Part shown: one piece after another, positions 7,927 to 24,796 of the stretch
Position numbering within the stretch: the stretch's first letter is position 1
Layout: every line of letters begins with the position of its first letter
NCBI GenBank assembly: GCA_963697335.1
Contig: CAVONQ010000014.1
Span: 64,001 to 128,000 of the forward strand
DNA length: 64,000 bases
From: an uncultured cyanobacterium
GTDB lineage: Bacteria > Cyanobacteriota > Cyanobacteriia > PCC-6307 > Cyanobiaceae
Reading direction: 5' to 3'
Notes under the pieces: generated by a model
What the model saw: the letters and a program-made list of their open reading frames with translations, nothing else
What the model was told of the DNA's origin: nothing
The model's database searches: none
Program-made: the position numbers and the translations under genes

Positions 7927-8037
7927 TGAAGAAGGCGGCGGTGGCCACGACCACGGCCAGAGGAACTGCGGTGAGCAGCAGGAGGATCACGGCCGTCCAG
8001 TCGGTGTACATCGCCGCCAAGTCACTGTGTTCCATCA
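7895..8037 (-). CDS. Small single-TM protein
   Basis: MYTDWTAVILLLLTAVPLAVVVATAAFFIRQQQKK. Start uncertain. Confidence 0.45.
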
Positions 8038-11899: not shown

Positions 11900-13360
11900 A
11901 TGACCCGCACGATCACGATCGATCCCGTGACCCGCATCGAAGGGCACGCCAAGATCACCCTCCACCTCGATGGGGCCGGGCGCCTGGCCGATGCCCGCTT
12001 CCACGTGGTGGAGTATCGCGGCTTCGAAACCTTCTGCGAGGGCAGGCCATTCACCGATATGGCCGGGATCACGGCCCGCATCTGCGGCATCTGCCCGGTG
12101 AGCCACCTGCTGGCGGCGGCGAAAACCGGCGACAAGCTGCTGGCAGTGCAGCCGCCGCCGGCGGCGCGCCAGTTGCGGCGGCTGCTCAACCTGGCCCAGA
12201 TCTGCCAGAGCCATGCGCTCTCGTTCTTTCACCTGAGCAGCCCTGATTTCCTGCTGGGCTGGGAGAGCGATCCGGCGCGGCGCAATGTGTTCGGCCTGAT
12301 GGCCGCCGATCCCGATCTGGCCCGCGCCGGCATCCGGTTGCGACAGTTCGGCCAGCAGGTGCTGGAGCTGCTGGGGGGCCGCAAGATCCATTCGGCCTGG
12401 GCCGTTCCCGGCGGCGTGCGCACGCCCCTGAGCGCTGAGGCAAGGCAGTGGATCCTGGAGCGCCTGCCGGAGGCGAAGGCCACGGTGGCCATGGCCCTGG
12501 AGCTCTACAAATCCCTGCTGGATGGTCCGCTGCAGCGGGAGCAGAGCAGCTTCGGCGATTTCCCCTCGCTGTTCATGGGGCTGGTGGGGCCTGGCGGGCG
12601 CTGGGAGTGCATCGACGGCCTGATCCGCTTCACCGGCAGTGACGGCCGGATCGTGGCCGATGGCCTCAGCGAAGACGACTACGCCAGCTACCTGGGCGAG
12701 GCGGTGGAGAGCTGGAGCTACCTGAAATTTCCCTATTACAAGCCGCTGGGCTATCCCGAGGGGATCTACCGGGTGGGGCCACTGGCGCGGCTGAATGTGT
12801 GCGACTCGATCGGCACCCCCTGGGCCGACGCCGAACTGGCCGAGTTTCGCCAGCGCAGCGGCACTGAGGAGAGCGGCAGCCGCATCGTGACCTCCTCGTT
12901 TGCCTATCACCACGCCCGGCTGGTGGAGATCGTGGCCTGCCTGGAGGGGATCGAGCAGCTGGTGGCCGACGACAGCCTGATGGGCGGCCGCATCCGTGCT
13001 CGCGCCGACCTCAACGCCAACGAGGCGGTGGGCGTGAGCGAGGCACCGCGCGGCACCCTGTTTCACCACTACCGGGTGGATGACAACGGCCTGATCACCC
13101 GGGTGAACCTGATCATCGCCACGGGCCAGAACAACCTGGCCATGAACCGCACCGTGGCCCAGATTGCCCGGGAGTACTTCCCCGAACGGGTCGCCGACGG
13201 CGCCGAGATCCCCGAGCCGCTGCTCAACCGGGTGGAGGCGGGCATCCGCTGCTTCGATCCCTGCCTCTCCTGCAGCACCCATGCGGCGGGGCAGATGCCA
13301 CTGCACATTGAGTTGCGGGATGCGGGAGGTGAGTTAGTCGCGGAGCGGTTGAGGGATTGA
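11900..13360 (+). CDS. hoxH: Hydrogenase large subunit HoxH
   Basis: [27 protein letters not shown] plus a C-terminal cleavable extension. Confidence 0.97.
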
Positions 13361-13466
13361 GGGGTGGGCACCAGGGGTCAAGCCCCACGGCTGAGGAACC
13401 TCCCTCAAAGAGTCCACGCTCTTGCCTGGGATGGCAGCGGTACTTGGCTGTGTAGTCGCGTGAACG

Positions 13467-13630
13467 GTCTTATGCGGACCCGCATAAGACGCAAGGGCCT
13501 CGAAGTGGCCACCCAGAAGCCGCTGCGATCAAAGGGCTCTTGTAGTGTGGCCCTGAGATGGGGGCGCTCTTATGCGGCTGCAGGTAGATGGGGTCAGATT
13601 TTATACGGGTCCGCCCAATCAGCGTTAGCC
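13467..13630 (+). mobile_element. attI-like integron recombination region
   Basis: Ends in the core GTTAGCC (13624-13630) whose complement closes cassette 1. It has no attC hairpin. It contains a palindrome at 13467-13490 and TTATRCGG repeats. Confidence 0.6.
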
Positions 13631-13676
13631 AAATGAACAGCTCCCTGCTCTTAGTGCATTTCTAGAGGATGGACTT

Positions 13677-14372
13677 ATGTTTCCAGCTTATTCACTGAAT
13701 GAAGTCTTGCGCGAGATTGCCACAGCCTTTAGATCTCGCTACCAAAAAGAAGACGGTCAAAGAGTTCGCATGGTCGGGCTGCTATTTGCCCCACCTGGCG
13801 CGGCAATTAGTAAAGCCGAGATACTGCCTCGCCTTGATGACTTTCATCATCGTTCAGGGAACAACATCGATTTCTTCTGTGCAGGTTATGGCGCTTATTG
13901 GCCAGAGAGCTGGGTTTCCGATGCACAGCCAGTAACAACTACTACTGACCCCAGACTTGGCCTAAAGACAGATTGGCTTTACAGTTCAAAATACTTTCAC
14001 GACTTTCGCAAGGAGATAGAATCTACGGCGAAAAGCTGGAAATATAGTGGCGAGGTTGATCTTGTCTTGTTAAACGCCTATCCAGATACCGATGATCTGG
14101 CCAGACTCGATTTCACAGGTGCTGTTGTACTACGTATTGACCAGCTAAGAAACGATAAATTGATCGAGTCTGCACCTAAATTGCTCGAAAAGATCTTTCG
14201 TTATGCCGAAGTGCAAAGAGGGGATGATCCGACATGGGGTTTTAGTGATGAGATGGGATTTAAGGAGGGCCGTTCCTGGTTTGTAGAACTAGTTCTGTCT
14301 CGGCTCCCTCTGAAAACAGGAGAATTATGGAAGAGAGGGAGTCACTATGCCGTTTTAAATCTTACCCAGTAA
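13677..14372 (+). CDS. Hypothetical protein (cassette 1)
   Basis: 231-aa low-GC ORF with GAGGA upstream. No family recognised. Confidence 0.8.
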   Translation: MFPAYSLNEVLREIATAFRSRYQKEDGQRVRMVGLLFAPPGAAISKAEILPRLDDFHHRSGNNIDFFCAGYGAYWPESWVSDAQPVTTTTDPRLGLKTDWLYSSKYFHDFRKEIESTAKSWKYSGEVDLVLLNAYPDTDDLARLDFTGAVVLRIDQLRNDKLIESAPKLLEKIFRYAEVQRGDDPTWGFSDEMGFKEGRSWFVELVLSRLPLKTGELWKRGSHYAVLNLTQ

Positions 14373-14437
14373 AATGCTCGCATGGGAGAACTCGTCTATT
14401 CTATTGCTCACCACTATTGCAGCCAATTCCGCATTCT

Positions 14438-14527
14438 GGCTAACATCACCATTCACCAAAGCCACCGCCGAGAGGATTCTGGTTATCTCAGAAACTCCCT
14501 CCGGACTGGTGATGATGGGCGTTAGCC
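14438..14527 (+). mobile_element. attC site 1
   Basis: GGCTAAC-ATCAC-CATTCACCA ... TGGTGATG-ATGGGC-GTTAGCC, with one extra base in the left L box. Confidence 0.8.
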
Positions 14528-14559
14528 TATGCGCAATTAAGACATGTTAATTCAAACGG

Positions 14560-15339
14560 ATGGCCAAGAGAAAACCACATTCGCTTGAATCACTTTCTGA
14601 TCGGGGCAGGCGACTGCTGCACGATTCGCATGATCCCACCGGAACACACAGTGAGTTTGAGAGCTGGGACCACGATGTTGCCAAATGGCTGGACACGGAA
14701 TTTCCTGACAGAGGGTTCTCCGCTCAATGGTCATCCATCTCCACGTCGCCGCTCGTTTTGGGAGGTTACTACAACGATGACCCAGGGTCATGGGCTGCCT
14801 TTCGAACTGCTGTGCAACGCCGCCTAAAATTTCTCAGCGAGGTAATACAAACGAAGTCGCATCGACCACCGACACGCACTAGTGCTACAGACACTAGACG
14901 GGTATTCTTGGTACACGGTCATGATGAGGCGGCTCGTGAAAAGGTCGCTCGATTTCTCGAAAAACTGGGGTTTACACCCATCATTCTCCACGAGCAACCA
15001 AACATGGGGCGGACGATTATCGAGAAATTCGCCGACTATTCCGATGTTGCTTATGCCGTCGTATTGCTAACGGCTGATGATATTGGCGGCACGAAAGACA
15101 CAAACGCAAATCAACTTGCAGCAAGAGCAAGGCCCAATGTGCTTTTTGAACTTGGCTACTTCATTGGCAAACTGGGTCGTGATCGCGTCTGCGCCCTCCA
15201 TGAAACAGGTGTCGAGATCTTGTCAGATTACAGTGGCGTGCTTTACGTGACATTGGATGTGACGAATGCTTGGCGCCTACATCTGGCAAGAGAAATGAAA
15301 GCCGCGGGGCTTCCCGTAGACATGAACAAAGCGATTTGA
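14560..15339 (+). CDS. TIR-like domain protein (CAP12/Pycsar-effector-type TIR, PF10137-like) with unknown N-terminal domain (cassette 2)
   Basis: RVFLVHGHD...PIILHEQPNMGRTIIEKF...AVVLLTADD...ARPNVLFELGYFIGKLGRDRV...SDYSGVLY. Confidence 0.88.
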   Translation: MAKRKPHSLESLSDRGRRLLHDSHDPTGTHSEFESWDHDVAKWLDTEFPDRGFSAQWSSISTSPLVLGGYYNDDPGSWAAFRTAVQRRLKFLSEVIQTKSHRPPTRTSATDTRRVFLVHGHDEAAREKVARFLEKLGFTPIILHEQPNMGRTIIEKFADYSDVAYAVVLLTADDIGGTKDTNANQLAARARPNVLFELGYFIGKLGRDRVCALHETGVEILSDYSGVLYVTLDVTNAWRLHLAREMKAAGLPVDMNKAI

Positions 15340-15422
15340 TTACCGGCTAACAATGAAGTCATGTTCAACTGCATGCCAGTGAGGAAATGAGGGAATTTAT
15401 GAACCTAAGTCGTTCCTGGCTA

Positions 15423-15515
15423 GGCTAACAAGCCCCTCGAGTGGACAGGCCGCCACTAAACTCTCTGCTAAGCCACCCCAAGTTCCTTGCCTGCCACTCA
15501 GGGGCAGCGTTCGAA
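15423..15515 (+). mobile_element. attC site 2
   Basis: GGCTAAC-AAG-CCCCTCGAGTGGACAGGC ... GCCTGCCACTCAGGGG-CAGC-GTTCGAA. The arms pair except for two unpaired bases (C, A). Confidence 0.88.
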
Positions 15516-15801
15516 GGGTCAAGCCATTTCCTGAAGGATGTTGGAAGAAGATCTTTGGTGGCCTGAGAAGCGGTCTGCCATGGTAGAGAGTATAGCCCGT
15601 CTTGAAAAGCAGTTCGCAAAGTTGTTAGGAGGACTTTGTTATCTCAGGAGAATGTCAAGATTCTAATCTAGGTATGAGCTCCTTCGCGACGGAAATCCAG
15701 CAGATGCTTGGTCTGCAGGCAAGAGCTCTGCTCCACTCGCTGAAGACATCGTTAAATTTCCTCTCTGTTCACTGCATGGCGCTGCGATGGGGGCATAACA
15801 G

Positions 15802-17841
15802 ATGAAACGCCTCGTTTACATGACAAGCCCCCGCAAGAGCAGATCCGCTGCAGCATCAGCATCAAGGCAGCGCGTTTCGGCAGCGCCCACGATGGAATCC
15901 GGCGGCGTGGAGCGGCGCCTCACCGCACGACCCGACAGCGTTGACTTCCGGGATCTGATGTACGTGCCAACGTTGGTGGAAGTTCCACCAGAAAAACCGA
16001 TCGCCGACTATCGAGCGCTCGGCATTCCGGTGCTTGATCAGGGCAGTGAAGGCGCCTGCACGGGCTTCGGGCTTGCAACTCTGGCCAACTACCTGCTGGC
16101 CACCCGAAAAAGCCAGCCTGATTCGGAATCGGTAAGTCCGCATATGGCCTATAGCCTCGCCCGCCGTTACGACGAATGGGCCGGAGAGGACTATGACGGC
16201 TCCAGTTGCCGCGGTGCCATGAAAGGGTGGCACAAGCACGGAATCTGCACCAAAAAGCTCTGGACGAAATCGAGTCCGGCTAACAAGGGCCTCACACAGA
16301 GCGTGAGTGCTGATGCAGCCAAACGACCGCTTGGTTCCTACTTCCGGGTCAACCACACCGATTTCGTCGCCATGCACGCGGCGATCACGGAGGTGGGTGT
16401 GCTCTACGCAAGCGCCCGAGTTCATGAGGGATGGCAAAAAGTGGACAGCGATGGCCGCATCCATCCAAGCGACATCCCGCTCGGTGGTCACGCCTTCGCG
16501 ATCGTTGCCTATGACGCCGATGGCTTCTGGATCCAGAATTCCTGGGGGCCGACATGGGGGAATGAAGGGTTCTGCCATCTCGGCTATGCCGACTGGCTAG
16601 CGAATGGCAGTGATGCCTGGGTGGCCCGCCTGGGAGCGCCGGTGTCCATGCGATCCCCCGAGGGCACGGCTACGGGCCCGGTGGGCGCTGTTCGATCGAA
16701 CGCTTTCCAATACAACCAGATTCGCCCCCATGTGATCAGTTTGCGGAATGATGGTCAGCTCGATCCGCACGGCAACATCGCGACCACAACCGACCTGCTG
16801 GGGGAGATCATCAATCAGGATTTCATTCGCATCAGCGAGGGATGGAAGCGGCGACGGTTGGTGCTGTATGCCCACGGTGGGCTGGTTCCCGAAAATGCGG
16901 CGCTCCAGCGGACATCCGAATTCCTTGAGGAGATGCTACCCAAGGAATGCTATCCGCTGGCATTCATCTGGAAGAGCGATTATTGGAGCACCCTGCGCAA
17001 CATTCTCGAGGAAGCCACTCGCCATCGCCGCAATGAGGGTTGGATCGATGCGACCAAAGACTTCATGCTCGATCGCCTTGATGACGCGCTGGAACCCGTA
17101 GCACGTCATCTCACCGGTAAAGCGCAGTGGGACGAGATGAAAGAGAACGCTCAGCGCGCCACCACCTCGGCCCGCGGTGGCGCACGCCTGCTCGCCGCCG
17201 AGTTGGCGAAGCTGATGGCGAAGGAGCCCTCCATAGACCTCCATCTGGTGGCCCACAGTGCCGGCAGCATCCTCCATGCCCATCTGCTGCGTCACCTCAC
17301 GGAAGACCTTGGAATTACCGTGGCGTCCTGCACACTCTGGGCACCAGCCTGCACCACTGAGCTCTTCGAAGCCACGTATCTCCCTGCCCTCAAGAGTGGA
17401 CTTCTGCAATCTCTCCATCTCTACACTCTCAGCGACGTGGCCGAACAGAATGATCACTGCGCCCGCATCTACAACAAGTCCTTGCTCTATCTGGTGTCGC
17501 ATGCCTTTGAGGAACATGTGCGGATACCCCTGGTCGGTCCCCATGGAGAACCACTGCTTGGCATGGAGAGGTGGATCAAAGCAAACCCTGATCTGGCCAG
17601 ACTCTTCAGCGGGAGTTACCCCGGCGTGAGCTGGACCCGCTCACCGAACGACGCTCCGTCCGATTCACCATTGGCGGCGCGTGCCACCAGCCATGGAGAC
17701 TTCGACAGCCGCCGCTTCCATGTCGTGACATCCACTATCGCCCGCATCCGGGATGATGCCGTCACCTCGATGGAGGTAAGCCGGCTCCAGCGCACAGCGG
17801 CATCTCGTTCGGCACGCCGTGGAATCCTGAATGATCTCTGA
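15802..17841 (+). CDS. C1 (papain-family) cysteine peptidase fused to an alpha/beta-hydrolase domain (cassette 3)
   Basis: DQGSEGACTGF (Q/C), GGHAFAIVAY (H), IQNSWG (N). The C-terminal part has LVLYAHGGL and the HLVAHSAGS nucleophile elbow. Start may be Met7. Confidence 0.85.
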   Translation: MKRLVYMTSPRKSRSAAASASRQRVSAAPTMESGGVERRLTARPDSVDFRDLMYVPTLVEVPPEKPIADYRALGIPVLDQGSEGACTGFGLATLANYLLATRKSQPDSESVSPHMAYSLARRYDEWAGEDYDGSSCRGAMKGWHKHGICTKKLWTKSSPANKGLTQSVSADAAKRPLGSYFRVNHTDFVAMHAAITEVGVLYASARVHEGWQKVDSDGRIHPSDIPLGGHAFAIVAYDADGFWIQNSWGPTWGNEGFCHLGYADWLANGSDAWVARLGAPVSMRSPEGTATGPVGAVRSNAFQYNQIRPHVISLRNDGQLDPHGNIATTTDLLGEIINQDFIRISEGWKRRRLVLYAHGGLVPENAALQRTSEFLEEMLPKECYPLAFIWKSDYWSTLRNILEEATRHRRNEGWIDATKDFMLDRLDDALEPVARHLTGKAQWDEMKENAQRATTSARGGARLLAAELAKLMAKEPSIDLHLVAHSAGSILHAHLLRHLTEDLGITVASCTLWAPACTTELFEATYLPALKSGLLQSLHLYTLSDVAEQNDHCARIYNKSLLYLVSHAFEEHVRIPLVGPHGEPLLGMERWIKANPDLARLFSGSYPGVSWTRSPNDAPSDSPLAARATSHGDFDSRRFHVVTSTIARIRDDAVTSMEVSRLQRTAASRSARRGILNDL

Positions 17842-18342
17842 AAGAAGCTCTCTGACCCTGAACTTCTCTGTTGGGTGATCTTCGGGCGAAGAGTAAGATC
17901 AGGTTTGAACGACTTGTCGGCGGCAGCCCTGATGATGTCAGGGCCGTTGGATCTGGCGCCCCTGAGTTAAGCATCAATGATGGTGCCAGCTCCAGGGTTA
18001 ATTGCCAGCAGAAGGGCCCGACATTCATAATCCTGTTGACCGGTGGCGAATAGCCTTCACAGAGCATCGTTATTGAAGAAGCAGATGGAGGTGCGGCCTT
18101 AACGCAGATGCACTGGGAGAAATCGCACGTGCACAAGGAATGACACTGACCGAGCTCCAGACTGGCCATGCGCGCAAAAGCCTCGAAATGACGTTTTAAG
18201 GTGCTGGCAGCCAAGGCATTGAGGAGGCCCCAAAGGTCATCCGTTCTCTGGCGTGAAGTTGGGCTGAAGTGTGCTCAAGGATTTTCCCCTGAGTTGCAGC
18301 ATCACGGCAAGAGTACAAGATGGTGGCAACATTACCGCGCCC

Positions 18343-18433
18343 TTCGAACACACTCTTAGATTGGACAGGCCACCCTCAGATCCCTACTACGCCCCCAAGG
18401 CTCCCTGCCTCCCACTCAAGGGGAGCGTTCGAA
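18343..18433 (+). mobile_element. attC site 3 (degenerate member of the attC2/4 family)
   Basis: TTCGAAC-ACACTCTTAGATTGGACAGGC ... GCCTCCCACTCAAGGGGAGC-GTTCGAA. Confidence 0.8.
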
Positions 18434-18470
18434 GGATGTGTCGTGCTTGAGGGGAGCCAGCAAGGCAGCG

Positions 18471-18499
18471 TTGCGCGGTCGTAGCCAGGAGGCTACAGT
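18471..18499 (+). promoter_or_regulatory. TA promoter with palindromic operator
   Basis: TTGCGC-N17-TACAGT. The palindrome GTAGCC-AGGA-GGCTAC (18481-18496) overlaps the spacer and -10. Confidence 0.65.
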
Positions 18500-18505
18500 T
18501 GGTGG

Positions 18506-18810
18506 ACGGTTGAAGTCCGCCAGGCAGAGCGGTTCGTCCGATGGCTTTCAGGTCTACGTGATCTGAGGGGCCGAGCGAAGGTTCTGGCCAGGATCGAGCG
18601 CCTCATCGGTGGTAATCCTGGTGACGTCAAGCCCGTTGGGGCAGGCGTGTCGGAGTTGCGGATCAACTACGGCCCTGGATATAGGGTCTACTACCTGCAG
18701 AAGGGAACTGAGTTGATCATTCTTTTGCTGGCGGAGACAAGAACTCACAAGCCAAGGACATTGATGAGGCCCTTCTGTTGGCAGACAACCTGACGGAGGA
18801 GACCTTATGA
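18506..18810 (+). pseudogene. RelE/HigB-like (HI1419-type) addiction toxin with lost start codon and frameshift
   Basis: (ACG)VEVRQAERFVRWLSGLRDLRGRAKVLARIERLIGGNPGDVKPVGAGVSELRINYGPGYRVYY...LIILL. The conserved AGGDKNSQAKDIDEA tail continues in another frame after ~18725 and ends overlapping the antitoxin ATG. Confidence 0.8.
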
Positions 18811-19115
18811 AAACCACGACCACTCCCTACGACGTTGCCGAGCATCTCCGCACACCTGAGGAGATGGCGGCCTACCTCGATGCCTGCATCGAGGAGGCGG
18901 ATGGAGATGCTGCCTTCATTGCCAAGGCCCTGGGCGACATTGCTCGGGCCCAAGGGATGACCCAGGTGGCCAGAGATTCCGGACTGTCCAGGGAGAGCCT
19001 CTACAAGGCCTTGTCTGGAGAGCGCAGCCCGAGCTTCGACACCATCCTGAAGGTGGTCACGGCCTTGGGTCTGAAGTTGAGCGCGAGTGTGAGAAGCGAT
19101 GCGGAAGTGACTTGA
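18807..19115 (+). CDS. Addiction-module antidote protein (HI1420-type HTH antitoxin)
   Basis: YDVAEHLRTPEEMAAYL...ALGDIARAQGMTQVARDSGLSRESLYKALSGERSPSFDTILKV. Confidence 0.92.
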   Translation: MKTTTTPYDVAEHLRTPEEMAAYLDACIEEADGDAAFIAKALGDIARAQGMTQVARDSGLSRESLYKALSGERSPSFDTILKVVTALGLKLSASVRSDAEVT

Positions 19116-19168
19116 ACATTGCAGATGCGGCGTTGGTCCGCATACGCTGGCTATGGAGATGCGACACC

Positions 19169-19258
19169 TTCGAACAAGCCCCTCGAGTGGACAGGCCGCC
19201 GTCGAGTCTGCTTCGCGAGCTATAGCTTCTTGCCTGCCACTCAGGGGCAGCGTTAGCC
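19169..19258 (+). mobile_element. attC site 4
   Basis: TTCGAAC-AAGCCCCTCGAGTGGACAGGCCGCC ... GCCTGCCACTCAGGGGCAGC-GTTAGCC. Arms are identical to attC2. Confidence 0.88.
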
Positions 19259-19307
19259 GCATCAGATGCCGAGGCTGGGTAGACTGGAGATTGTCTCTTT
19301 GGTGGCG

Positions 19308-19541
19308 GTGCCAACAATCCTGAGGAGTGGGCCATACCGGGTCTATTTCCACAGCCACGAGCCTAATGAACCTCCTCATGTTCATGTTGATCGTGATCGA
19401 GCAAGCTGCAAGATGTGGTTAAATCCTGTCGCGCTGGCCTCAAGCCTGGGATTCAAGGCGGCAGAGCTTCGAGACATTGAGCGGCTTGTGAGTGCCAACA
19501 GGGCTATGCTGGTAAAAGCATGGGAGGAGTTTCATGGTTAA
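19308..19541 (+). CDS. DUF4160 family protein (cassette 5)
   Basis: GTG start; PTILRSGPYRVYFHSHEPNEPPHVHV...KAWEEFHG. Confidence 0.85.
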   Translation: MPTILRSGPYRVYFHSHEPNEPPHVHVDRDRASCKMWLNPVALASSLGFKAAELRDIERLVSANRAMLVKAWEEFHG

Positions 19542-19794
19542 TCCTGGGGCGCGTGTCATGAACGTGAGTTCTACAGATGACGTTCTTGTTGTCGAGCTTG
19601 AGGACGGCAGAACTATTTCCGTTCCACTCGCTTGGTATCCAAGGCTGCTGCATGCGTCTCAGAAGGATCGTGATGACTGGCAAGTCGCCGGTGGTGGCTT
19701 TGGCATTCACTGGCCGACTATTGATGAGGATCTCAGCGTCGAAGGTCTGCTCCGTGGAGCACCAGCTCCCCGAGTCCGTGTGATGAGCAGCTAA
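19534..19794 (+). CDS. DUF2442 family protein (cassette 5)
   Basis: LEDGRTISVPLAWYPRL...GIHWPTIDEDLSVEGLL. Its stop codon TAA lies inside the attC inverse core. Confidence 0.88.
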   Translation: MVNPGARVMNVSSTDDVLVVELEDGRTISVPLAWYPRLLHASQKDRDDWQVAGGGFGIHWPTIDEDLSVEGLLRGAPAPRVRVMSS

Positions 19795-19891
19795 CACAGT
19801 CATGCACCTGACCCGCCACCGCAGATTCAATTCGCCCTTTGAGTTGCGTTCACCCCAGCTCTTTGCTGGCAGGTGACGGCAAGCGTTAGCC
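19789..19891 (+). mobile_element. attC site 5
   Basis: AGCTAAC-ACAGT-CATGCACCTG ... CAGGTGACG-GCAAGC-GTTAGCC. Confidence 0.75.
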
Positions 19892-19933
19892 CCCCCAAGC
19901 AGCTCGCAACCCATCAACTAGCCCTGTGTTGCC

Positions 19934-20329
19934 GTGTCCAAGACCATCCAAGCCGGCCTCACTTACTTCGCCATGGTGTTGGGTGCGGGGTTTCTACTTG
20001 GCATGATCAGGATTCCGTTCCTGGTGCCACGCATCGGCGAGCGTTGGGCGGAACTGGCGGAGATGCCCATCATGGCGATGGTCATCTACCTGGCGGCGGG
20101 AGCGATCCTTCGCCGATTCCCTGAGATTGGCTCTCCGAGCCGGTCCTTGATCGCAGGCCTGCTGGCCCTGGCGCTGATGGTGGCGGCGGAATTGGCGCTG
20201 GTCAGCGTGGTGCAAGGCATGCCACTCATGGAATTCATCGCCAGCCGAGACGTGGTGTCGGGCTCGGTCTATCTCGTTCTGCTGCTGGTGTTTGCCGTGA
20301 TGCCACGGCTTCGGCTCTCAGCACGATGA
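19934..20329 (+). CDS. Hypothetical membrane protein (about 4 TM), possibly a terminal cassette with lost attC
   Basis: Hydrophobic 131-aa ORF directly after the attC5 core. Confidence 0.75.
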   Translation: MSKTIQAGLTYFAMVLGAGFLLGMIRIPFLVPRIGERWAELAEMPIMAMVIYLAAGAILRRFPEIGSPSRSLIAGLLALALMVAAELALVSVVQGMPLMEFIASRDVVSGSVYLVLLLVFAVMPRLRLSAR

Positions 20330-20351
20330 AACCAGCTCCCTTCTGCCGGCT

Positions 20352-20804
20352 TTGAGCCTTTCTTCAGCGCCGCCCCAGTGCCTGGTGATCGGCATCGGCA
20401 ACCCCCTGCGCGGCGATGACGGCGTCGGGGCCCTGCTGGCCGAGCAGGTGGGCGGCCGTTGCATGCACCAGCTCACGCCGGAGCTGACCGCCGATCTGGC
20501 GCCGTTGCAGCGGGTGCTGTTCATCGATGCCTGGCTGGCACCAAAGCAGCCCGGCCCCGCGCCCCAGCCCCGGCTCGACCCACTGCCGGTCGCTTCGCGG
20601 CCCGCTGGCAGCGGCGCCAGCCATCACCTCGAGCCCGCCCAGTTGCTGGCGATCACCGCGGCCCTCTACGGCCGTGCCCCCAACGCCTCCTGGCTGCGCA
20701 TCCCCGCCCACAGCTTCAGCCACGGCAACGCTTTCTCCCCCCAGCTCCAGGCCTCACTGCCAGCGGCTCGCCGCCTGCTGCGTCGCTGGCTGGGGGAGTG
20801 CTGA
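20352..20804 (+). CDS. hoxW: Hydrogenase maturation protease
   Basis: LVIGIGNPLRGDDGVG, HQLTPEL, LFIDA, SHH motifs. Lies downstream of hoxH. Confidence 0.88.
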   Translation: MSLSSAPPQCLVIGIGNPLRGDDGVGALLAEQVGGRCMHQLTPELTADLAPLQRVLFIDAWLAPKQPGPAPQPRLDPLPVASRPAGSGASHHLEPAQLLAITAALYGRAPNASWLRIPAHSFSHGNAFSPQLQASLPAARRLLRRWLGEC

Positions 20805-21175: not shown

Positions 21176-21190
21176 GCCTGCGTTGATCCA

Positions 21191-21232
21191 GGGGGCTCTG
21201 GTGTGGTGTGTCCTCCACCCTCCAGAGCCCCC
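21191..21232 (+). terminator. Stem-loop between the RiPP precursor and the MNIO gene
   Basis: GGGGGCTCTGG ... CCAGAGCCCCC, 11-bp arms with no strong U tract. Confidence 0.55.
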
Positions 21233-21257
21233 GCCCTTCTGTTGCTCTGCGCCTGCC

Positions 21258-22082
21258 GTGGCTGATTCCAACATCCAGGGCGTAGGCGTGGGCCTGCGCC
21301 CTCCCCACTACGCCGACATCCTCAGCCGCTGGCCGGCACTTCCCTGGTTCGAAGCCCTCTCGGACAATTACCTCGGCGGGGGCCTGCCCCTGCATCACCT
21401 CAGCCTCATCCGCGAGCGCTATCCGATCACCCTGCACGGGGTGGGCCTCTCGCTCGGTTCGGTGGATCCGCTCAATCAGGCCTATCTCCAGCGCCTGAAA
21501 GCGCTGGTGGATCGGGTTGAGCCCAGTGTCGTGTCGGATCATCTGGCCTGGGTGTCCCAGGGGGGCCGCTATTTCCATGACCTCGCCCCACTCCCCTACA
21601 CCGAGGAGGCCCTGGTGCACGTGGCGGAACGCATCCAGCGCGTGCAGGACTTTCTGGGGCGACAGATCCTGATCGAGAACCTCTCCCCCTACGTGAGCTT
21701 TGCCGGAGCCGACTACCTCGAATGGGAGTTTCTCAGTGAGCTGGCCCGCCGGGCCGACTGTTTTCTGCTGTTGGATGTGAATAATGTGTTTGTCAATGCC
21801 TTCAATCACGGCTTCGATCCACTCCCCTATCTCGATGCCCTGCCCGCCGAGCGGGTGAAGGAAATCCATCTCGCCGGCTATGAAGAAGAGGGCAGCTTCC
21901 TGTTCGACACCCATGGCCGCGCCGTGCAGGATGGGGTCTGGGCGTTGTACCGGCAGGCCCTGCAGCGCTTTGCGCAGGTGCCGGCCCTGATCGAGTGGGA
22001 CACCGACATCCCCTCCCTCGATGTGCTGATGGCGGAGGCTGCCAAGGCGGAGGCGCTGCGCTCGGATCGAGCCCGGCCATGA
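21258..22082 (+). CDS. DUF692 multinuclear non-heme iron oxidative enzyme (MNIO, BufB-type)
   Basis: GVGLRPPHY, FEALSDNY, LHGVGLSLGS, VSDHLAW, ILIEN, LLLDVNNVFVN, EIHLAG, DTH, IEWD. Confidence 0.93.
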   Translation: MADSNIQGVGVGLRPPHYADILSRWPALPWFEALSDNYLGGGLPLHHLSLIRERYPITLHGVGLSLGSVDPLNQAYLQRLKALVDRVEPSVVSDHLAWVSQGGRYFHDLAPLPYTEEALVHVAERIQRVQDFLGRQILIENLSPYVSFAGADYLEWEFLSELARRADCFLLLDVNNVFVNAFNHGFDPLPYLDALPAERVKEIHLAGYEEEGSFLFDTHGRAVQDGVWALYRQALQRFAQVPALIEWDTDIPSLDVLMAEAAKAEALRSDRARP

Positions 22083-22894
22083 AGCTGGCAGCGCTCCAGC
22101 AGCTCTTCGCCGCAGCGGCCCTGGGCACGGCCACTGAAGCCGAGCAGGCCCGGCTGGCCGCCCACCTGCAGGGCAGCCGGGTGCTGCCGGCCCGGCAGGG
22201 CATCGAGGCCTACCGCACCAGCGTCAACGGCAAACTGCGGCGCAGTCTTGAGCAGATCTATCCCGTGTGCCAGCGGCTGGTGGGCGAGGCGTTCTTCCAG
22301 GCCATGGCGTCTGCCTTCCTGGAGCAGAGCGTCTCCAACTCACCAGACCTGGGCGACTACGGCGCCGGGTTGCCCGCGTTCCTGGAGGAGTTCCAACCGG
22401 CCAGGAGCCTTCCCTACCTCGGGGATGTGGCGCAGCTGGAATGGCTCTGGCACCGGGCCTTCAATGCCCCGGATCAACCCAGCCTCAATCTGGAAGCCCT
22501 GGCTGCTGTGCCTCCCGAGCACTGGGATCGGCTCGTGTTCCGCTTGCCGGCCGGGGCCGCCCTGATCGCCTCCGACTACCCCATTCACCGCATCTGGGAG
22601 GTCAACACCCTCGCGGAGGCGGAGCACGACGAGATCGATCTCGATCAGGGAGGAGTGAGGATCTTGGTGTGGCGCAACGGCCACACCACCCGCCTCGATC
22701 TGCCCAGCGAGCCGGAGTGGCCGCTGCTCCAGGCCTTCGCGCGGGGATTGCCCTTCGGCGAAGTCTGCCGCCAGGGCGTGGAGATCCCCGGCGCCTCGAT
22801 CGCCGCCCTCCTGCCCCTCTGGGTGCAGCGCGGCTGGCTGCGGGAGTTCGAGCTGCAGGCTGCCGCTAGTGGATCAGAACAGGGCGATCCATAA
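22079..22894 (+). CDS. DUF2063 MNIO partner protein (BufC-type)
   Basis: ATGA overlap with the MNIO gene; AYR...LEQIYPVCQRLVGEAFF...YG...YLGDVAQLEW. Confidence 0.88.
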   Translation: MKLAALQQLFAAAALGTATEAEQARLAAHLQGSRVLPARQGIEAYRTSVNGKLRRSLEQIYPVCQRLVGEAFFQAMASAFLEQSVSNSPDLGDYGAGLPAFLEEFQPARSLPYLGDVAQLEWLWHRAFNAPDQPSLNLEALAAVPPEHWDRLVFRLPAGAALIASDYPIHRIWEVNTLAEAEHDEIDLDQGGVRILVWRNGHTTRLDLPSEPEWPLLQAFARGLPFGEVCRQGVEIPGASIAALLPLWVQRGWLREFELQAAASGSEQGDP

Positions 22895-23092
22895 ACTGCT
22901 GCGCCAGAAGGGTGTTGATGATGGCGCGCTGAGGGAAAGCGGATTTCAACAGGTGCTCGAGACACGATGAAGCGTCGCAACGCGCAGCAGCGATGCAGAA
23001 CATCAGAATGCCCAACAGCGTTAGTCTTCAACCAATCAGCCGCATGCGCTCTACAATGGTTGGCTTGTCATGAAAGAAGCCTGCTTCCAACA

Positions 23093-24796
23093 ATGTTGTC
23101 TCCATCCAAGCCATCTACCAAGCCCTGCGCAACAACCTTTGAGGAATTTGCGCGATTGGCAGACTATTCATTACTGGATGGCTTGAATGCTGATCCGGAT
23201 GCCACCGAAGATGGTGATGATCACCGGGTCAGGCAGGTCTTTTCAGGCCATTTCGTACCTGTCACGCCCACACCACTTGCCAACCCTGCCTATGTCGCCC
23301 ATAGCAGCACCTTGTTTGCTGAGCTTGGCCTGAGCGACGAGCTGGCCCTGAACAAGGACTTTCGCCAGGTCTTTTCCGGTGATCTGTCTGCCGCCCCCGA
23401 GCCCATGCATCGGGCTGGCTGGGCGACGGGTTATGCCCTGTCGATTTATGGCACCGAGTACATCCAGCAATGTCCGTTTGGCACGGGGAATGGTTATGGC
23501 GATGGTCGGGCCATCTCTGTCTTTGAAGGGGTGTTCAAGGGCCAGCGCTGGGAGATGCAGTTAAAAGGTGGCGGTCCCACACCCTATTGCCGTGGAGGTG
23601 ACGGGCGTGCCGTGTTGCGTTCCAGTGTGCGTGAGTTTCTGGCCCAGGAGCACATGCACGCTTTGGGTGTTCCCACATCGCGCTCGTTGACCCTCTATGT
23701 GTCAACATCCGAGACCGTCCTGCGGCCTTGGTATTCGCCGGAGTCCCGCTCCAGCGACCCCGATATCGTGGTGAGCAATCCTGTGGCTATTTCCACTCGC
23801 GTTGCACCATCTTTTCTGCGGGTTGGTCAACTGGAGCTGTTTGCTCGTCGTGCCCGGAGTAAGGCGCATCCGGGCGCCCTGGAAGAACTGCGCATGATCG
23901 TGTCCCATCTCATCGAGCGGGAGTATCGACAGGACATTGACCGAGGTCTTGCCTTTGTCGATCAGCTCGTTGAGCTGGCCAGGTGTTTTCGCGGCCGCCT
24001 CACCGCCCTGATCGCCAACTGGCTGAGGGTGGGGTACTGCCAGGGCAACTTCAACAGTGACAACTGCGCCGCTGGTGGCTTCACGCTCGACTATGGCCCA
24101 TTCGGATTCTGCGAGCTCTTTGACCCTGCCTTCCAGCCCTGGATCGGCGGCGGTGATCACTTCGCCTTCTTCAATCAACCCATGGCAGCCGAGGCGAATT
24201 TCCATATGTTCTGGACAGCTCTGCGACCACTGCTCGCAGACGATGCAGAAGCCTTGGACAGTTTCGACCACGTGCGTGGTGACTTTGCAGCAGCGATGGA
24301 AACGGAACTCCAAGCCATGTGGGCCGCCAAGCTTGGCTTGACCGAATCCAATCCGCCCCTTGTGACGGCATTGCTGCAGTTGATGGCGGAGACAAAGGTG
24401 GATTACACCATCTTCTTCCGCGAATTGTCTCATCTGCCAGACCAGGTCTCGGCCCTGAAAAGCAGCTTCTACGTCAACCCATCACAACAACTCGATCAGC
24501 AATGGCAGTCTTGGCTGCAACGCTGGCGCGACCTCGTCGGCAACGACCGTGATCCGGTTGAGGTGTCAGCACAGATGAAACAGGTGAACCCCAAATACAC
24601 CTGGCGAGAGTGGCTGATTGTTCCCGCTTACGAACAAGCCATGAAGGGCGACTACGCCTTGGTGAGGGAGTTGCAGGACGTTCTTTCCCATCCGTACGAT
24701 GAGCAATCGCAGGAGGTGGAAGCTCGCTACTACCGCTTGAAGCCTGAACAGTTTTTCCATGCAGGTGGCGTTTCGCACTACAGCTGTTCGTCGTGA
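23093..24796 (+). CDS. selO: Protein adenylyltransferase SelO (YdiU family)
   Basis: [49 protein letters not shown]-terminal SCSS. Confidence 0.92.

Follow-up and report, generated by a model that had tools for sequence, protein, structure and literature searches.

The hox hydrogenase locus of an uncultured cyanobacterium of the family Cyanobiaceae carries an array of integron cassettes that has no integrase gene (intI) beside it. The array lies between hoxH and hoxW, at positions 13459-19891 of the 64,000-nucleotide stretch that was analysed (hereafter the window; positions 64001-128000 of contig C14, in a 2.58 Mb genome of 18 contigs that is 98.8% complete). It comprises five cassettes, each closed by an attC recombination site, and is preceded by a sequence homologous to the attachment sites (attI) that adjoin intI in related genomes. 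We are confident of its identity as a true array of integron cassettes with an orphan attI at its head. A previous reading of the window from its letters alone (the sequence-only reading) had proposed the array and had described it as a clustered set of attC sites without an integron integrase (CALIN), as an integron whose intI was deleted or as one whose integrase acts in trans; all three descriptions fit our results. The attI was absent from that reading and was found by the present analysis. With less assurance, we lean towards an array that is still served in trans by the integrase (IntI) that the genome encodes on another contig.

Results

An attI homologue follows hoxH

The orphan attI extends over positions 13459-13626 of the + strand and contains three conserved blocks: B1 (13460-13479), which is a palindrome, B2 (13569-13580) and B3 (13604-13626), the last of which ends in the G|TT crossover (G13624|T13625). 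The hoxH stop codon lies about 100 bp ahead of B1. Comparison of the regions downstream of intI in the clade (28 locus rows, some of which show one site twice) revealed that in most of the inspected loci the integrase gene is followed by a conserved region of about 170 bp, with block 1 about 20 bases past the stop codon, block 2 about 45 bases before the core and block 3 ending in G|TT, and that the sequences diverge past this point. The window site aligns with 17 intI-linked and 10 hoxH-linked regions of this type, the three blocks standing in the same order and at the same spacing, and it scores 104 bits with R3, the attI model that was used for genome scans. Homology to a site adjoining intI and divergence after the GTT crossover, the two features by which an attI is recognised, are both present. 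Judging from this alignment, the attI homologue at the head of the array suggests that an intI once adjacent to it was lost, rather than that the cassettes were inserted off target. A possible remnant of the last intI codons was seen by eye at 13430-13455, between hoxH and B1; it is too short to test and we make no claim on it.

Five attC sites close five co-oriented cassettes

The five attC sites, all on the + strand and each ending the cassette of the same number, are attC1 (14438-14527), attC2 (15423-15515), attC3 (18343-18433), attC4 (19169-19258) and attC5 (19789-19891), and they were confirmed in the sequence at exactly the coordinates first assigned to them. Two covariance models of our own (R1 and R2), trained partly on the window's sites, gave all five at E values of 1e-12 to 1e-24 (attC1 scoring 58 bits with R2), and an independent profile, whose only input was 17 attC sites of other genomes located downstream of intI, gave exactly the same five over the 64 kb, at 1e-9 to 1e-15 (attC1, 2.8e-10); no other site in the window reached E<=1 in either case. 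Of eight intI loci of relatives, seven gave like sites with R1 (17 matches), lying downstream of intI and in its orientation. An Rfam scan of 13000-20500 returned no attC match and only two matches at chance level, to the small nucleolar RNA sR44 and to a long non-coding RNA.

The anatomy of the sites is that of attC. The inverted cores follow 5′ RYYYAAC (R″) and 3′ GTTRRRY (R′), with AAC and GTT in 5/5 window sites; among 34 sites of the clade, GTT occurs in 34 and AAC in 32-33. Lengths are 90-103 bp in the window and 75-103 bp in the 34 clade sites, within the 57-141 bp expected of attC. Between the cores there is an imperfect L″/L′ stem in which structure rather than sequence is conserved: a plain MAFFT alignment of the 7 sites of this genome has 91% of the stem paired and 8 of 16 pairs compensatory, and the 34 sites of this and related genomes, in an alignment fitted to the model, have 94% paired and 12 of 16 compensatory. 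Two single bases, 6 pairs apart, bulge from the top-strand 5′ arm in all five window sites (columns 16 and 23), and the inner one is A on the top strand and T on the bottom strand in 5/5 window sites and 29/34 overall. This arrangement agrees with the rule for extrahelical bases as it is given by Nivina et al. (PMC5027507), namely that position 16 is usually a G, that the T at 23/24 is conserved and that a 6-bp stem lies between them. The two extrahelical bases that the sequence-only reading had noted in attC2 and attC4 reappear when the bottom strand is folded as DNA, the result being a long stem with two single-base bulges. The bottom-strand fold is at least as stable as the top-strand fold in 5/5 sites (-17.4 to -23.0 vs -12.5 to -22.8 kcal/mol); the z-scores of the folds, taken alone, are modest (-1.4 to -3.4).

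When each 3′ core is cut at its G|TT crossover to delimit the cassettes, the GTT start of every cassette is complementary to its own AAC end, as had been pointed out before, in perfect runs of 8, 9, 10, 9 and 6 bases for cassettes 1 to 5. In attC2 and attC4 the 3′ core present in the array matches the site's own 5′ core over 3 bases only, as expected if what follows G|TT is already part of the next cassette. The pattern reads as the signature of circular cassettes inserted successively. All five cassettes are co-oriented and run in the direction of the hox operon, and the GC content per cassette is 0.47-0.59, compared with 0.68 in the flanks.

Elsewhere in the genome, a lone attC of the attC2/attC4 type is located at C9:7964-8055, just past a gene ending at 7957. 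Its 5′ core has no AAC and resembles the accessory motif of attI (…CCGCATAAG).

The hoxH-hoxW interval varies cassette by cassette across the genus

Homologues of hoxW were found in 18 of 24 genomes of the same genus, and 14 of these loci were fetched, 11 of which also hold hoxH. The proposed insertion between the two genes is borne out by this comparison: by tblastn coordinates, hoxH and hoxW are separated by a gap of 2.1-16.9 kb in 10 of the 11 relatives and by 18 bp in the remaining one (G017), where the hoxH stop codon overlaps the ATG that opens the hoxW frame. An attI-type region opens all ten gaps, 165-265 bases past the hoxH stop codon. The presence of the same attI after hoxH in most species of the genus indicates that the platform is old. 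Beyond G|TT the bases differ in 11/11 species, the window included, so that the first cassettes are unlike one another. R2 gave 17 attC matches in the hox loci of relatives, all 17 co-oriented with hoxW and 15 of them inside the delimited hoxH-hoxW gap. The variation at the level of cassettes that the sequence-only reading would lead one to look for is therefore present; the block is not repeated identically in relatives, its content varies, and the attC models score the sites.

At the DNA level, the closest relative, G012, has hoxH, the attI (70%) and cassette 2 as a whole (96%) in common with the window, and likewise all sequence from 19891 on (89%). Its hox array shares nothing further, and homology resumes exactly at 19891, the end of attC5. 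In G019, homology passes through the attI to 13629 and then ends. Arrays linked to intI in G012 (83%) and G155 (91%) also contain cassette 4 as a unit. In lake water, contigs of about 1985 nt from two metagenome runs cover 13624-15510 exactly (36 differences), and in one of them the 97 letters left of 13624 are unlike the window; many other metagenome contigs match the attC sites and diverge at the site borders. The share of sampled words present in public runs is 0.16 at most. The comparisons of aligned DNA show that the cassettes are modular units and have at some time moved between arrays.

Two further observations concern the same interval. Some metagenome joints (e.g. 13364→15424 and 15517→19168) have sides of only 24-34 letters; they were disregarded as induced by repeats and have no bearing on excision. 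In G008 (C6:2757-2930; L057), a partial copy of the 5′ end of hoxW is found within the gap, about 4 kb upstream of the full hoxW.

The genome encodes an intact integrase on another contig

As the sequence-only reading had stated, the 64 kb contain no tyrosine recombinase: the genome has 6 matches to PF00589, none of them on contig C14, and that contig has no match to the integron integrase model TIGR02249 either. A search of the rest of the genome, which had been suggested as a check, yielded an intact intI at C16:4662-5597 (TIGR02249, 466 bits with the cut-off at 265), which is free of stops and spans positions 2-314 of the 315 in the model. Among 14 control genomes none exceeded this cut-off and all had matches below it. 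Cyanobacterial integrons are known in general (PMC4889954; PMC8352920), and in our samples integron integrases over the cut-off were found in 75 of 301 genomes of the family and, at E<=1e-40, in 15 of 16 genomes of the genus. The hox array has five attC sites with a largest spacing of 2.9 kb and no integrase nearby, which is what defines a CALIN (at least two attC sites at most 4 kb apart). It is not a complete integron, in which intI is adjacent to attI and array, the intI being on another contig. The last 10 bases before the crossover are identical in the hox attI and in the attI of contig C16.

The complete integron of this genome occupies C16:1-5700 on the minus strand, in the order intI, attI, a 2.46-kb unit, a mini-cassette without an open reading frame (ORF), a mazEF cassette and an attC5-like attC. 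The 2.46-kb unit encodes a tyrosine recombinase and a transposase of the insertion sequence (IS) family IS91 and is placed exactly at the G|TT of the attI. It is cassette-like in that it starts with TTGAAC and ends in a short hairpin with GTTCAAC; its left end also abuts an attI of G002 (L067), and a 99% copy is located at C2:1-2456, at a G|TT site that is not an attI. The short attC of the mini-cassette was misaligned by MAFFT and was excluded from the models, and R1 failed to detect it. A broken integron integrase, with a stop codon and frame changes, lies at a contig edge (C15:5-680); its attI and array were not assembled with it.

Other attI sites without integrase occur in the genus

Scanning with R3 gave attI-like matches in 27 of 31 genomes of the genus, from 1 to 17 per genome. 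The closed genomes G012, G002, G019 and G013 have 7, 7, 10 and 7 R3 matches against 1, 2, 2 and 3 intI matches; these counts include some R3 matches that duplicate a site, split or on the opposite strand, and some intI fragments. Ten intI-less attI sites were examined, two in the genome of the window and four each in G012 and G002. All ten are followed by co-oriented attC matches (21/21), and at all ten the GC content falls from 0.58-0.73 upstream to 0.45-0.62 downstream. An intI remnant was found upstream of one of the ten: at G002:C1:2955070-2955600 (L078), a decayed and internally deleted intI, in three fragments within about 510 bp, stands directly upstream of attI and a cassette array. 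In its layout L078 is midway from a complete integron to an orphan attI, and it fits the deletion route.

The second intI-less attI of the genome, at C7:221253-221376, is followed by co-oriented attC sites. The third, at C2:310305-310476, has a core of a different type (…GACTAG|TT), which in G019 and G002 is intI-linked; low-GC ORFs come after it, with two or more attC sites up to the contig end (region 310305-313703). After the C7 attI comes an ORF-less mini-cassette of about 140 bp (region to 221510), 97% identical to C16:1874-2014, and the same mini-cassette also takes the place next to attI in intI-linked arrays of G008 and G019 and in the G012 hox array; its content might be a promoter or a small RNA. 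In G012 an insertion of about 1.2 kb interrupts the attI beside the sole intI match (C1:994145-995559; L066); judged by eye, it encodes a putative IS3-type transposase. The other attI sites of G012, which have no intI, are intact.

Cargo of the cassettes and flanking genes

All cassettes are read on the + strand. Cassette 1 (13625-14521; 897 bp, GC 0.47) has an ORF at 13677-14372 for a 231-aa protein that matched no known family in Pfam, PADLOC and NCBIfam searches or in a protein-atlas look-up. Cassette 2 (14522-15509; 988 bp) encodes, at 14560-15339, a 259-aa TIR protein (PF10137, 1.8e-37) that is predicted to be the PADLOC candidate defence system PDC-S35 from a full-length match to PDLC05005 (4.5e-75, residues 8-258 of 259). 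Cassette 3 (15510-18427; 2918 bp) carries an ORF at 15802-17841 for a 679-aa protein with an N-terminal C1 (papain-like) peptidase domain (PF00112, 3.9e-6), whose atlas neighbours are C1 peptidase families, and a decayed toxin-antitoxin (TA) remnant at about 17870-18250, 52% identical to an intact toxin and with an in-frame stop. Cassette 4 (18428-19252; 825 bp) contains a toxin pseudogene at about 18490-18800, which alignment with intact copies shows to have lost its start codon and to have a 1-bp deletion, and an intact antidote of the HI1420 type at 18807-19115 (TIGR02684, 3.7e-36). Cassette 5 (19253-19885; 633 bp) carries a DUF4160 (19266-19541; PF13711, 7e-18) and DUF2442 (19534-19794; PF10387, 1.4e-22) pair, and a 60%-identical pair lies within the hox gap of G007. 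The cargo had been thought to look like defence and TA genes; this holds for one PADLOC candidate defence gene and three TA-like modules, two of them decayed, and does not extend to the two remaining genes, which are of unknown role.

The last gene ahead of the array is hoxH (11900-13360, + strand), which encodes the large subunit of a NiFe hydrogenase (PF00374, 1.4e-29) and is 86-97% identical to its counterparts in relatives of the same genus. A domain search placed NuoF-like, ferredoxin-like and NuoB-like genes, of the hoxF, hoxU and hoxY types, 5′ of it. On the other side, hoxW (20352-20804, + strand) encodes the hydrogenase maturation protease (TIGR00072, 60.5 bits; cut-off 47.45). A 131-aa ORF at 19934-20329 on the + strand, without a match in Pfam, NCBIfam and PADLOC searches, forms the conserved right flank of the array and is not recognisable as a cassette; apart from the window, it was found in 3 of 11 compared relatives (G012, G007 and G016). 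The genome as a whole has a GC content of 66-70% and 12 matches to phycobilisome proteins, the latter marking it as cyanobacterial; its small size and GC content would suit a picocyanobacterium of the Cyanobium/Synechococcus type. Further along the window, 21183-24796 encodes an MbnB/TglH/ChrH-type enzyme for the modification of ribosomally synthesised and post-translationally modified peptides (PF05114, 2.5e-106), then a DUF2063 protein and then SelO, and from about 22800 the GC content is down to 0.54-0.60.

Discussion

How may an array without integrase have come to stand between hoxH and hoxW, and how may it be maintained? We propose that a co-oriented integron of the type seen in the clade, with intI, attI and cassettes, most likely lay between the two genes and that its intI was then deleted. 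The IntI from contig C16, where the attI has the same 10-base core at its end, would act in trans: it would excise cassettes through attC x attC recombination of folded bottom strands, and the circular cassettes would be inserted at G13624|T13625 of the hox attI. The cassettes are probably transcribed by read-through from the hox genes, which must also reach hoxW. Read-through is proposed because the cassettes are co-oriented with hoxEFUYH and because no terminator-like sites were found on the + strand of 13300-20500, a negative that we use weakly; a pattern scan for promoters and terminators gave no more sites than in shuffled sequences. On a wider scale, the genus may run a distributed integron, in which one or two intact intI genes serve about 4-10 dispersed intI-less attI platforms, the hox platform having been inherited since early in the genus and still turning over cassettes. 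We hold this proposal as tentative, quite conceivable yet somewhat short of probable.

Several observations weigh against the reading of the hox array as an integron platform served in trans. The outer extrahelical base is the canonical bottom-strand G in only 2/5 window sites and 10/34 overall, and sites of the window itself went into the seeds of both R1 and R2. Two hox gaps, of 4.9 kb in G022 and 16.9 kb in G023, hold no attC that R2 finds at E<=1, and that of G002 has only a weak match (E 0.42). Of the 23 bases of B3, 4 differ between the hox attI and the C16 attI, and an attI is as a rule recognised by its own integrase, so the C16 IntI is unproven as the cognate enzyme. The decay of two of the three TA modules suggests long residence of those cassettes, and no direct sign of ongoing recombination emerged, four metagenome runs giving no reliable excision or empty-site joint. 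These last two points also suit a fossil platform, whose intI would have been deleted long ago and whose recombination would have ceased, the differences between species being left over from old activity and differential loss. Besides the toxin pseudogene, the decayed TA remnant and the metagenome contigs without trustworthy excision joints, this explanation would account for the absence of intI in cis, and it has a parallel in Xanthomonas, where arrays at conserved positions with inactivated intI are described as frozen (PMC12444791). We nevertheless judge it unlikely, if worth keeping in mind. The first cassette is unlike in 11/11 species, and in the window it is the one with the lowest GC content (0.47) that occupies the first position, the entry point of new cassettes; the same genome has an intact intI whose attI core 10-mer is identical, and the same cassettes are found in intI-linked arrays elsewhere. 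The attI blocks are also better conserved than their spacers (72% vs 45% identity among the 11 hox copies, and 58% vs 32% between hox and intI-linked regions), a contrast that is partly circular because the blocks were chosen by eye after alignment.

The remaining explanations have much less to recommend them. Insertion by IntI at a secondary GTT site, here after hoxH and with no true attI, is one of the routes to a CALIN in the account of Cury et al. (PMC4889954), but the 170 bp or so ahead of the crossover match regions of intI-linked attI block by block, and the R3 score and the orthology of the site in 10 of 11 relatives make such an origin very unlikely. Cury et al. also describe the parting of an array from its intI by rearrangement (PMC4889954), and the IS91-family unit at the C16 attI could be taken as a trace of such an event; that the array and the C16 intI are two pieces of one recently split integron is more doubtful still, since the C16 intI keeps its own complete attI and the hoxH-attI junction is common to 10 other species, closed genomes included. 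Low GC content and defence and TA cargo are common to many kinds of genomic island, and the repeats might then be terminators or repetitive extragenic palindromic (REP)-like elements. Cassette starts complementary to their own ends, a covarying stem with canonical bulges, the linkage of the same sites to intI in relatives and the sharing of single cassettes with other arrays make an island unrelated to integrons the most improbable of all.

In the usual picture, an integron consists of one integrase, one attI and one array, and CALINs are leftovers of unclear status. The hox leftover keeps a conserved attI, an orthologous place, a first cassette that differs in every species and cassettes common to intI-linked arrays. 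If such orphan attI sites are active, the integron capacity of a genome cannot be read from counts of intI, and the ability of an attI to work at a distance from intI becomes testable in a natural system. Integron traffic would then account for some of the flexible genome that picocyanobacteria of fresh and brackish water carry, candidate phage-defence genes included. If the distributed integron proposed above is true, expression of the cassettes and of hoxW would be tied to hydrogenase induction. The position in the hox operon also raises the question of whether 7 kb of foreign DNA before hoxW affects maturation of the bidirectional hydrogenase.

In the literature we found no report of integron arrays at hox loci or of orphan attI or multiple attI per genome in cyanobacteria; the supplementary tables of two surveys (PMC4889954, PMC8352920) were outside this search and may list such CALINs. 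Nor did this search turn up an intI-less array with a conserved attI, its genus-wide orthology in the hox operon or attI counts that exceed those of intI, though those tables might enter these arrays as plain CALINs. CALINs themselves and their possible origins are established (PMC4889954). The hox array resembles the CALINs described there in that an IntI is encoded elsewhere in the genome and that the cargo consists mostly of unknown genes. According to the same description, attI sequences are unknown for most integrons, and the definition of a CALIN neither requires nor seeks an attI (PMC4889954); the hox array differs in being headed by a recognisable attI homologue and in the orthology of its platform across the genus.

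Other known integrons offer closer parallels in single respects. The intI of a Synechococcus sp. was grouped with that of Treponema, where intI points toward attI and the cassettes (PMC3607928). The intI loci of the relatives follow this layout, 17/17 attC matches lying downstream of and co-oriented with intI, whereas the window platform has no intI and hoxH stands in its place. Large chromosomal integrons, those of Vibrio among them, have TA pairs as cassettes. The hox array has them too, in cassettes 4 and 5 and as the remnant in cassette 3, but with two of the three modules decayed a stabilising role is doubtful. In Xanthomonas, an ilvD-linked integron, CALINs at recurrent positions and frequent loss or inactivation of intI are described (PMC12444791), and the likeness to the hox platform is in chromosomal arrays held at one conserved locus across a genus. 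The main array of Xanthomonas, as described in that work, has an intact or broken intI beside it and its activity was progressively lost (PMC12444791); the hox platform, in contrast, has no trace of intI at the locus, belongs to genomes with more attI-like sites than intI genes and opens with an unlike first cassette in every species compared.

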